A stretch of DNA of 64,000 nt from Escherichia coli (GTDB lineage Bacteria; Pseudomonadota; Gammaproteobacteria; Enterobacterales; Enterobacteriaceae): NCBI RefSeq assembly GCF_003334315.1, contig NZ_QOWR01000020.1. The stretch is one strand, 5' to 3'. Under the pieces are notes generated by a model. That model was not told the DNA's origin. It searched no databases and was given only the letters and a program-made list of their open reading frames with translations. A program made the position numbers and the translations under genes. The stretch's first letter is position 1. The number at the start of each line of letters is the position of its first letter. Of the stretch, positions 26,171 to 26,194 are shown one piece after another.

Positions 26171-26194
26171 AGATGTCCAGATGTATTGACGTCC
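26171..26194. promoter_or_regulatory. Tandem met boxes (MetJ operator) in the metJ/metB divergent control region
   Basis: AGATGTCC AGATGTAT TGACGTCC: three consecutive 8-bp repeats resembling the AGACGTCT consensus. Confidence 0.6.

Follow-up and report, generated by a model that had tools for sequence, protein, structure and literature searches.

Do the short tandem units that lie between metJ and metB, and again upstream of metF, in a stretch of Escherichia coli DNA constitute operators of the methionine repressor MetJ, and does the number of such units tell us how strongly each promoter is controlled? The question arises from a stretch of 64,000 nucleotides, henceforth the window, for which an original prediction, made from the letters alone, had claimed three consecutive met boxes at 26171–26194 and a second tandem array at about 30131–30160. 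It had taken the pair to illustrate clearly how the number of repeats encodes the strength of an operator, and had named a weight-matrix scan of the window with a count of boxes per promoter as the way to check it. By way of background, the consensus of the MetJ box is AGACGTCT; natural operators are tandem repeats of two to five such boxes, and repression by MetJ requires at least two adjacent ones. Taking the evidence below together, we conclude that both arrays are almost certainly natural operators of MetJ in E. coli.

The genes around the arrays (Table 1) could be assigned from the RefSeq annotation of identical sequence: the 4.9-kb stretch that holds them shows 100% identity to several complete E. 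coli chromosomes, and a search of a genome collection recovered the same stretch in 5,426 of 5,426 complete E. coli genomes at a coverage of at least 80%. The first array stands beside metJ, such that the cognate repressor is itself encoded in the window; its 105-residue product matched the met repressor chains 1CMA and 1MJ2 of the PDB at E = 1e-67. The RefSeq annotation and the list of open reading frames further place katG after metF, and yiiX, rpmE and priA before metJ. The gene identities named in the original prediction are thereby confirmed.

Table 1. Positions in the window of the MetJ arrays, their flanking units, the methionine genes, the candidate promoter elements and three Rfam-matched elements.
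Feature	Position	Strand	Details
MetJ operator of the divergent metB and metJ promoters	26163–26194		contiguous 8-bp boxes AGAAGTTT AGATGTCC AGATGTAT TGACGTCC
Degenerate unit ATACGCAA	26155–26162		4/8 to AGACGTCT; −0.88 bits, below the matrix threshold
MetJ operator of metF	30129–30160		boxes TTACATCT GGACGTCT AAACGGAT AGATGTGC, four of matrix grade
Preceding unit CTTCATCT	30121–30128		4/8 to AGACGTCT; −7.65 bits, fails the matrix; overlaps the candidate metF −10
metJ	25664–25981	−	RefSeq annotation of identical sequence, 100% DNA identity; encodes the cognate repressor
metB	26258–27418	+	RefSeq annotation of identical sequence
metL	27421–29853	+	RefSeq annotation of identical sequence
metBL operon	26258–29853	+	RefSeq annotation and list of open reading frames; under the first operator
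metF	30202–31092	+	RefSeq annotation of identical sequence; under the second operator
Candidate metB −35	26186–26191	+	TTGACG; overlaps boxes 3 and 4; read from the sequence
Candidate metB −10	26209–26214	+	TACTCT; 17 bp past the −35; 3/6 consensus matches
metJ promoter-like site 1	26150–26179	−	−35 TGGACA (26179..26174), 18-bp spacer, −10 TAGATT (26155..26150)
metJ promoter-like site 2	26123–26151	−	−35 TTGAGC (26151..26146), 17-bp spacer, −10 TAAAAT (26128..26123)
Candidate metF promoter	30101–30129	+	−35 TTGACG (30101–30106), 17-bp spacer, weak −10 CATCTT (30124–30129)
OxyS	55871–55980	−	Rfam
Ribosomal protein L31 leader	24540–24592	+	Rfam
ClpQY element	19871–19928	−	Rfam

As AGACGTCT is its own reverse complement, a scan of a single strand suffices, and the whole window was searched for two to five tandem copies of it, with 100 dinucleotide shuffles as the control. 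Across the 64 kb, the top places for three, four and five copies are the two arrays. In the first of these, each of the three units that fill 26171–26194, namely AGATGTCC AGATGTAT TGACGTCC, matches the consensus at six of eight positions, and the adjoining unit AGAAGTTT (26163–26170) likewise does so, which extends the array to 24/32 matches. Thus, the three boxes originally claimed are present at their stated quality, but they are an undercount, a fourth and equal box having been passed over. In the second array the four boxes match at 5, 7, 5 and 5 of eight positions (22/32 overall); the array claimed upstream of metF exists, in a register counted from 30129 and not 30131. The three-box span at 26171–26194 scores 18/24, as compared to a mean of 15.5 for the best span per shuffle, which never rose above 17. 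For four boxes, the arrays at metJ/B and metF score 24/32 and 22/32 against a best per shuffle with a mean of 18.8 and a maximum of 21, and for five boxes they score 28/40 and 26/40 against a maximum of 24.

The same two places emerge from a more quantitative model. We used the information matrix for MetJ given in Table 3 of Augustus and Spicer 2011 (PMC3228920) along with its published rule, which demands at least 3.15 bits of each box (a quarter of the consensus score) and at least 12.58 bits of a site (the consensus score). Just two sites across the 64 kb satisfy it: the metJ/B array, whose boxes score 6.78, 8.96, 8.57 and 6.87 bits for a total of 31.18, and the metF array, with 5.09, 10.35, 5.01 and 4.47 bits for a total of 24.92. 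When the window was shuffled 300 times, an average of 0.62 sites passed, no total rose above 19.76 bits and a single four-box site was seen. The matrix scan and box count that had been put forward as a check therefore return two sites far above background, with four boxes at each.

Could the 8-mers nevertheless be chance matches in AT-rich intergenic DNA? Single boxes above the threshold are indeed common and are not enriched (603 in the window versus 583 in the shuffles), and spans of two boxes at 12/16 arise by chance. However, the four-box spans of both arrays exceed every one of the 100 consensus-scan shuffles, the totals of 31.2 and 24.9 bits lie beyond the 19.8-bit maximum of the 300 matrix shuffles, and both sites precede methionine genes and are conserved. 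We consider the probability of a chance origin to be negligible and reject it on the shuffle results together with the occurrence of arrays in 80 of 80 metJ–metB spacers (see below). In other words, the signal is the tandem arrangement and not the single box. A perfect lone AGACGTCT lies inside the katG coding sequence (31978–31985) with no passing neighbour and was not called, a reminder that a single consensus box does not make an operator.

Both arrays are built of contiguous, unspaced units in strict 8-bp register, and both pass the matrix rule. Tandem Repeats Finder detected neither of them even at its lowest score threshold, as units so short and degenerate escape generic repeat finders; a motif model is needed for elements of this kind. 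As a negative control, the matrix scan found no passing met-box array near btuB, which also lies in the window. This agrees with published work according to which btuB of E. coli, unlike that of Yersinia, is without metboxes and is not repressed by MetJ. The same gene is preceded by a cobalamin riboswitch at 60970–61159 (+; Rfam RF00174, 87 bits).

How do these arrays stand in relation to operators that are already known? Table S1 of Augustus and Spicer 2011 (PMC3228920) gives both 32-mers letter for letter from E. coli K-12 MG1655. There, metB (b3939) is listed with four boxes, 31.2 bits and a gap of 63 to the start codon; metJ (b3938) with the same site on the other strand, four boxes, 31.2 bits and a gap of 181; and metF (b3941) with four boxes, 24.95 bits and a gap of 41. 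In the window, the first array lies 63 bases from the start codon of metB and 181 bases from that of metJ, and the second lies 41 bases before that of metF; for operators of MetJ, a distance of about 75 bases is typical. The sequence, the register, the distances to the start codons and the neighbouring genes are thus identical to those of the K-12 metJ/metBL and metF operators, with no difference in the window. The known E. coli operators have been studied by gel shifts and in vivo reporter assays (PMC3228920), and both 32-mers are identical to experimentally proven MetJ operators. By this identity of sequence, both arrays are the known operators of MetJ, already published base for base. Their discovery value is low, since they belong to the most thoroughly characterised operators of bacteria, with sequences that are the same as those published. 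They do furnish a positive control for the scan, in that a sequence-only reader placed true regulatory sites within two bases, and two corrections were gained: there are four matrix-grade boxes per promoter and not three, and repeat number alone is not a code for strength.

The remaining E. coli operators of MetJ (those of metA, metC, metE/metR, metK, metNIQ, mmuPM and ybdH/mtnE) share the consensus and the contiguous 8-bp units, with two to four matrix-grade boxes near the start codon. The metJ/B array has the highest total among the listed K-12 sites (31.2 bits) and is common to two divergent transcription units, as is the metE/metR site. More distantly, the arrays bound by other ribbon-helix-helix proteins (ParG, CopG and their relatives) are alike in the cooperative assembly of dimers on regularly spaced short boxes, in the need for at least two adjacent dimers and in the contacts made along a helical scaffold. 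ParG differs in using ACTC tetramers parted by 4-bp AT-rich spacers, whereas met boxes abut without spacers, and MetJ requires SAM as a co-repressor.

A further line of evidence comes from the conservation of the arrays across species. Searching a species-level genome collection with a degenerate pattern drawn from a conserved part of the metJ reading frame, we collected 120 loci. Where metB is divergently placed, an array is found in the spacer of 80 of 80 loci, including those of Vibrio, Shewanella and Aeromonas with unrelated flanks, against a chance expectation, scaled from the window shuffles, of about 0.002 arrays per spacer. Four boxes are the commonest state among these 80 (46 loci), followed by three (21), two (8), five (4) and six (1). 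At loci without a divergent metB, an array was present in 25 of 35, and none was found within 400 bp upstream of metJ in the other 10. The metJ gene is not divergent from metB in the Pasteurellaceae, Idiomarina, Kangiella and others, and the 10 array-less loci agree with published work according to which sites have been lost in Pasteurellales and some Alteromonadales. Several Alteromonadales have metJ divergent from metF instead, with an array of two or three boxes common to both.

Within the Enterobacterales, we aligned 26 metJ–metB spacers, in which the mean identity to the base in the window is 54% and that of the four boxes is 87–96%. The best-conserved 32-bp stretch of the spacer begins at 26161–26162, with 94% identity. 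On the 3' side of box 4 the sequences diverge immediately, until a conserved TAnnCT at the candidate metB −10; upstream of the boxes, conservation extends over 26120–26162, across more promoter-like hexamers. An array is likewise present at 25 of 28 metF loci. The core GGACGTCT AAACG of the metF array is conserved at 84–93% in seven further Enterobacterales and forms, with the TTGAC at 30101–30105, the best-conserved part of the region. Hence, orthologous conservation is seen at both metJ–metB and metF.

The location of the arrays with respect to the promoters has to be considered in this context. A scan for the sigma-70 consensus yielded no plus-strand promoter at metB and nothing at metF; because it missed both, the hexamers in Table 1 were read from the sequence and from conservation across species. 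We infer in this manner the exact hexamers at metB and metF; any occupation of the degenerate flanking units is likewise putative. At metB, 45 of 80 species have a TTGAC within the array, and in the Enterobacterales alignment it does not vary. The candidate −10 keeps TAnnCT in 25 of the 26 aligned sequences (locus L106 has TATGAT), and the spacer that precedes it is not conserved. On the minus strand, site 1 has 9/12 consensus matches in a conserved block with its −35 inside boxes 2 and 3, and site 2 also has 9/12 matches, its hexamers falling in conserved blocks outside the box array. At metF, conservation reaches 93% for the −35, and in the −10 an A in second place and a T in sixth place are common to the species compared. 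The arrays overlap the putative −35 of metB and the putative −10 of metF.

This overlap raises an alternative, namely that the conserved metJ–metB block merely reflects overlapping elements of two divergent promoters, and that its resemblance to tandem AGACGTCT is secondary. To elaborate, the TTGACG of metB falls within boxes 3 and 4, the metJ-like −35 within boxes 2 and 3, and conservation runs on upstream of the boxes, over 26120–26162, across additional promoter-like hexamers. Nevertheless, promoter hexamers fail to explain a palindromic match with a period of 8 bp over 32 bp, which takes in spacer positions that are unconstrained by a promoter. The motif is also found at metF, where the promoter is laid out differently, and in all 80 metJ–metB spacers, among them those of Vibrio, Shewanella and Aeromonas with unrelated flanks, and the identical sequence is the published operator that was tested by gel shift. 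We therefore hold this alternative to be very improbable. Promoter overlap as the sole cause of conservation was rejected for the four good boxes; for the unit at 26155–26162, it could still be the whole explanation.

We return, then, to the reading of both arrays as MetJ operators and to the mechanism by which they would act. As regards its basis, the sequences, their significance, the identity with published operators, the conservation and the presence of metJ come from this analysis, whereas binding, dependence on the co-repressor, cooperativity and repression come from the literature. According to the latter, MetJ is a homodimer of the ribbon-helix-helix type, and a SAM-loaded dimer binds each 8-bp box through its beta ribbon; contacts between neighbouring dimers lead to the cooperative filling of contiguous boxes. 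At metB, the filled array would cover the probable −35 and the DNA upstream of it. In the divergent direction, the same array would cover the −35 of a promoter-like site of metJ, such that metBL would be shut down and metJ partly autoregulated. At metF, it would extend from the −10 region through the presumed start site into the leader. At both loci, the filled array would exclude RNA polymerase from the promoter. The ChIP signal of MetJ reported at the metF promoter (bioRxiv 10.1101/254623) provides related evidence from the literature. As for metJ itself, three promoters have been described, one of them constitutive, and its self-repression is weak, about two-fold, i.e., to about one half (PMC3228920). 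Our finding of two promoter-like sites, one in the array and one outside it, fits both the three published promoters and the two-fold repression.

Is the strength of these operators then a matter of their repeat number? The original prediction held that it is, and a part of this stands: at least two adjacent boxes are required for repression in the literature, two papers tie the five boxes credited to metF to its heavy repression or its higher sensitivity to SAM, and across the 80 species total information climbs with box number, from 19 bits with two boxes to 44 with six. However, the window itself does not illustrate the rule. Both arrays have four matrix-grade boxes each, or five with the degenerate flanking unit included, and number therefore does not separate them; moreover, the higher score is that of the metJ/B array (31.2 versus 24.9 bits), yet it is metF that papers single out for its five boxes and heavy repression. 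The single metJ/B array also serves two genes, and metJ is repressed only about two-fold. This weakness follows from one of the three metJ promoters being constitutive, which implies that promoter geometry matters as much as the array.

Published data from other operators point in the same direction. Box number and bits are not monotonically related in K-12, where metK has three boxes and 15.0 bits and ybdH/mtnE has two boxes and 21.9 bits, and the three-box Ec.metN is repressed to 0.05, near the 0.02 of the four-box Ec.mmuP (all from PMC3228920). Differences in the sequence of the metboxes have themselves been cited in the literature as a cause of differential regulation. Among the 80 species, the mean per box drops from 9.7 bits with two boxes to 7.2 with five while the total goes up from 19 to 36 bits, a trend that is partly forced by the threshold, which compels sites of two boxes to average no less than 6.3 bits. 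Hence, that repeat number alone sets operator strength, repression tightening in proportion to the boxes, with these two promoters as its illustration, is in our estimate distinctly unlikely: the quality of the boxes and the position of the promoter contribute as well, and repeat number is one of several determinants.

The count at metF deserves a comment in this regard. The matrix recognizes four boxes there versus the classical count of five, with other papers counting five met boxes that overlap the −10 region (bioRxiv 10.1101/254623 for the overlap). The unit CTTCATCT, which overlaps the candidate −10, is probably the fifth box of that count. Upstream, about 40 bp from the putative −35 of metF, lies CTGAAGTTTTTTCAT (30046–30060), which fits the MetR motif ATGAA-N5-TTCAT and is conserved at 81% in seven further Enterobacterales. 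A second conserved TGA..TCA block is present at about 30066–30080. For the core TGAAN5TTCA, the window holds three occurrences as against 1.5 expected, which alone is not significant. This site is consistent with the published co-regulation of metF by MetR. RefSeq also lists, in some genomes, a 44-residue 'hypothetical protein' at 29992–30126 (−), which spans the metL–metF intergenic region, the MetR-like site and the −35 of metF; it is probably a spurious gene call.

Do arrays of this kind change by whole units? Within E. coli, a 69-bp query for the metJ/B operator matched 5,424 of 5,426 genomes, with an identity of 99% or more in 4,130, and the metF operator query matched 5,420 genomes. The most divergent metF allele examined, from ST2747, differs in the alignment by substitutions only. 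The sole record in the 80–90% identity band among the 5,424 genomes is that of strain 035152 (NZ_CP101705.1, L123:168–207), which carries an exact, in-register insertion of 8 bp in the DNA homologous to 26163–26194 of the window. Its array reads AGAAGTTT AGATGTCT AGATGTCT AGATGTAT TGACGTCC, with five passing boxes and 44.6 bits in this one assembly, as compared to four boxes in the window and in almost every other E. coli. We regard this five-box allele as a putative natural duplication, apparent in a single assembly; though a minor curiosity, it could serve to probe what box number does when the rest of the locus is in its native state.

The other candidate for an additional unit in this operator is the degenerate ATACGCAA that adjoins the four boxes. 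It is 94% conserved, being unchanged in 20 of the 26 aligned Enterobacterales sequences, and in one species, represented by locus L106, the homologous unit (AAACGTAA) clears the threshold with 4.6 bits. The unit sits in the spacer of the minus-strand promoter-like site and overlaps one base of its −10 hexamer. Going by its conservation and placement, it may be a position of MetJ or a part of the metJ promoter. A bolder proposal is that it represents a true fifth position of MetJ, filled only through cooperativity, and that gain or loss of whole units retunes the set-point of the methionine regulon within E. coli, with strain 035152 as an example; we offer this as a speculation that is, on balance, rather doubtful.

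Beyond the methionine genes, Rfam matches in the window include the OxyS sRNA adjoining oxyR, the ribosomal protein L31 leader before rpmE and the ClpQY (hslVU) promoter element. Matches to the families ES036 and naRNA4, which we take to correspond to REP-type repeated elements, were obtained at 25572–25613 (+), 6141–6182 (−) and 1059–1136 (−). The one just downstream of metJ probably accounts for the median of 40 matching places per genome that the 4.9-kb query returned.
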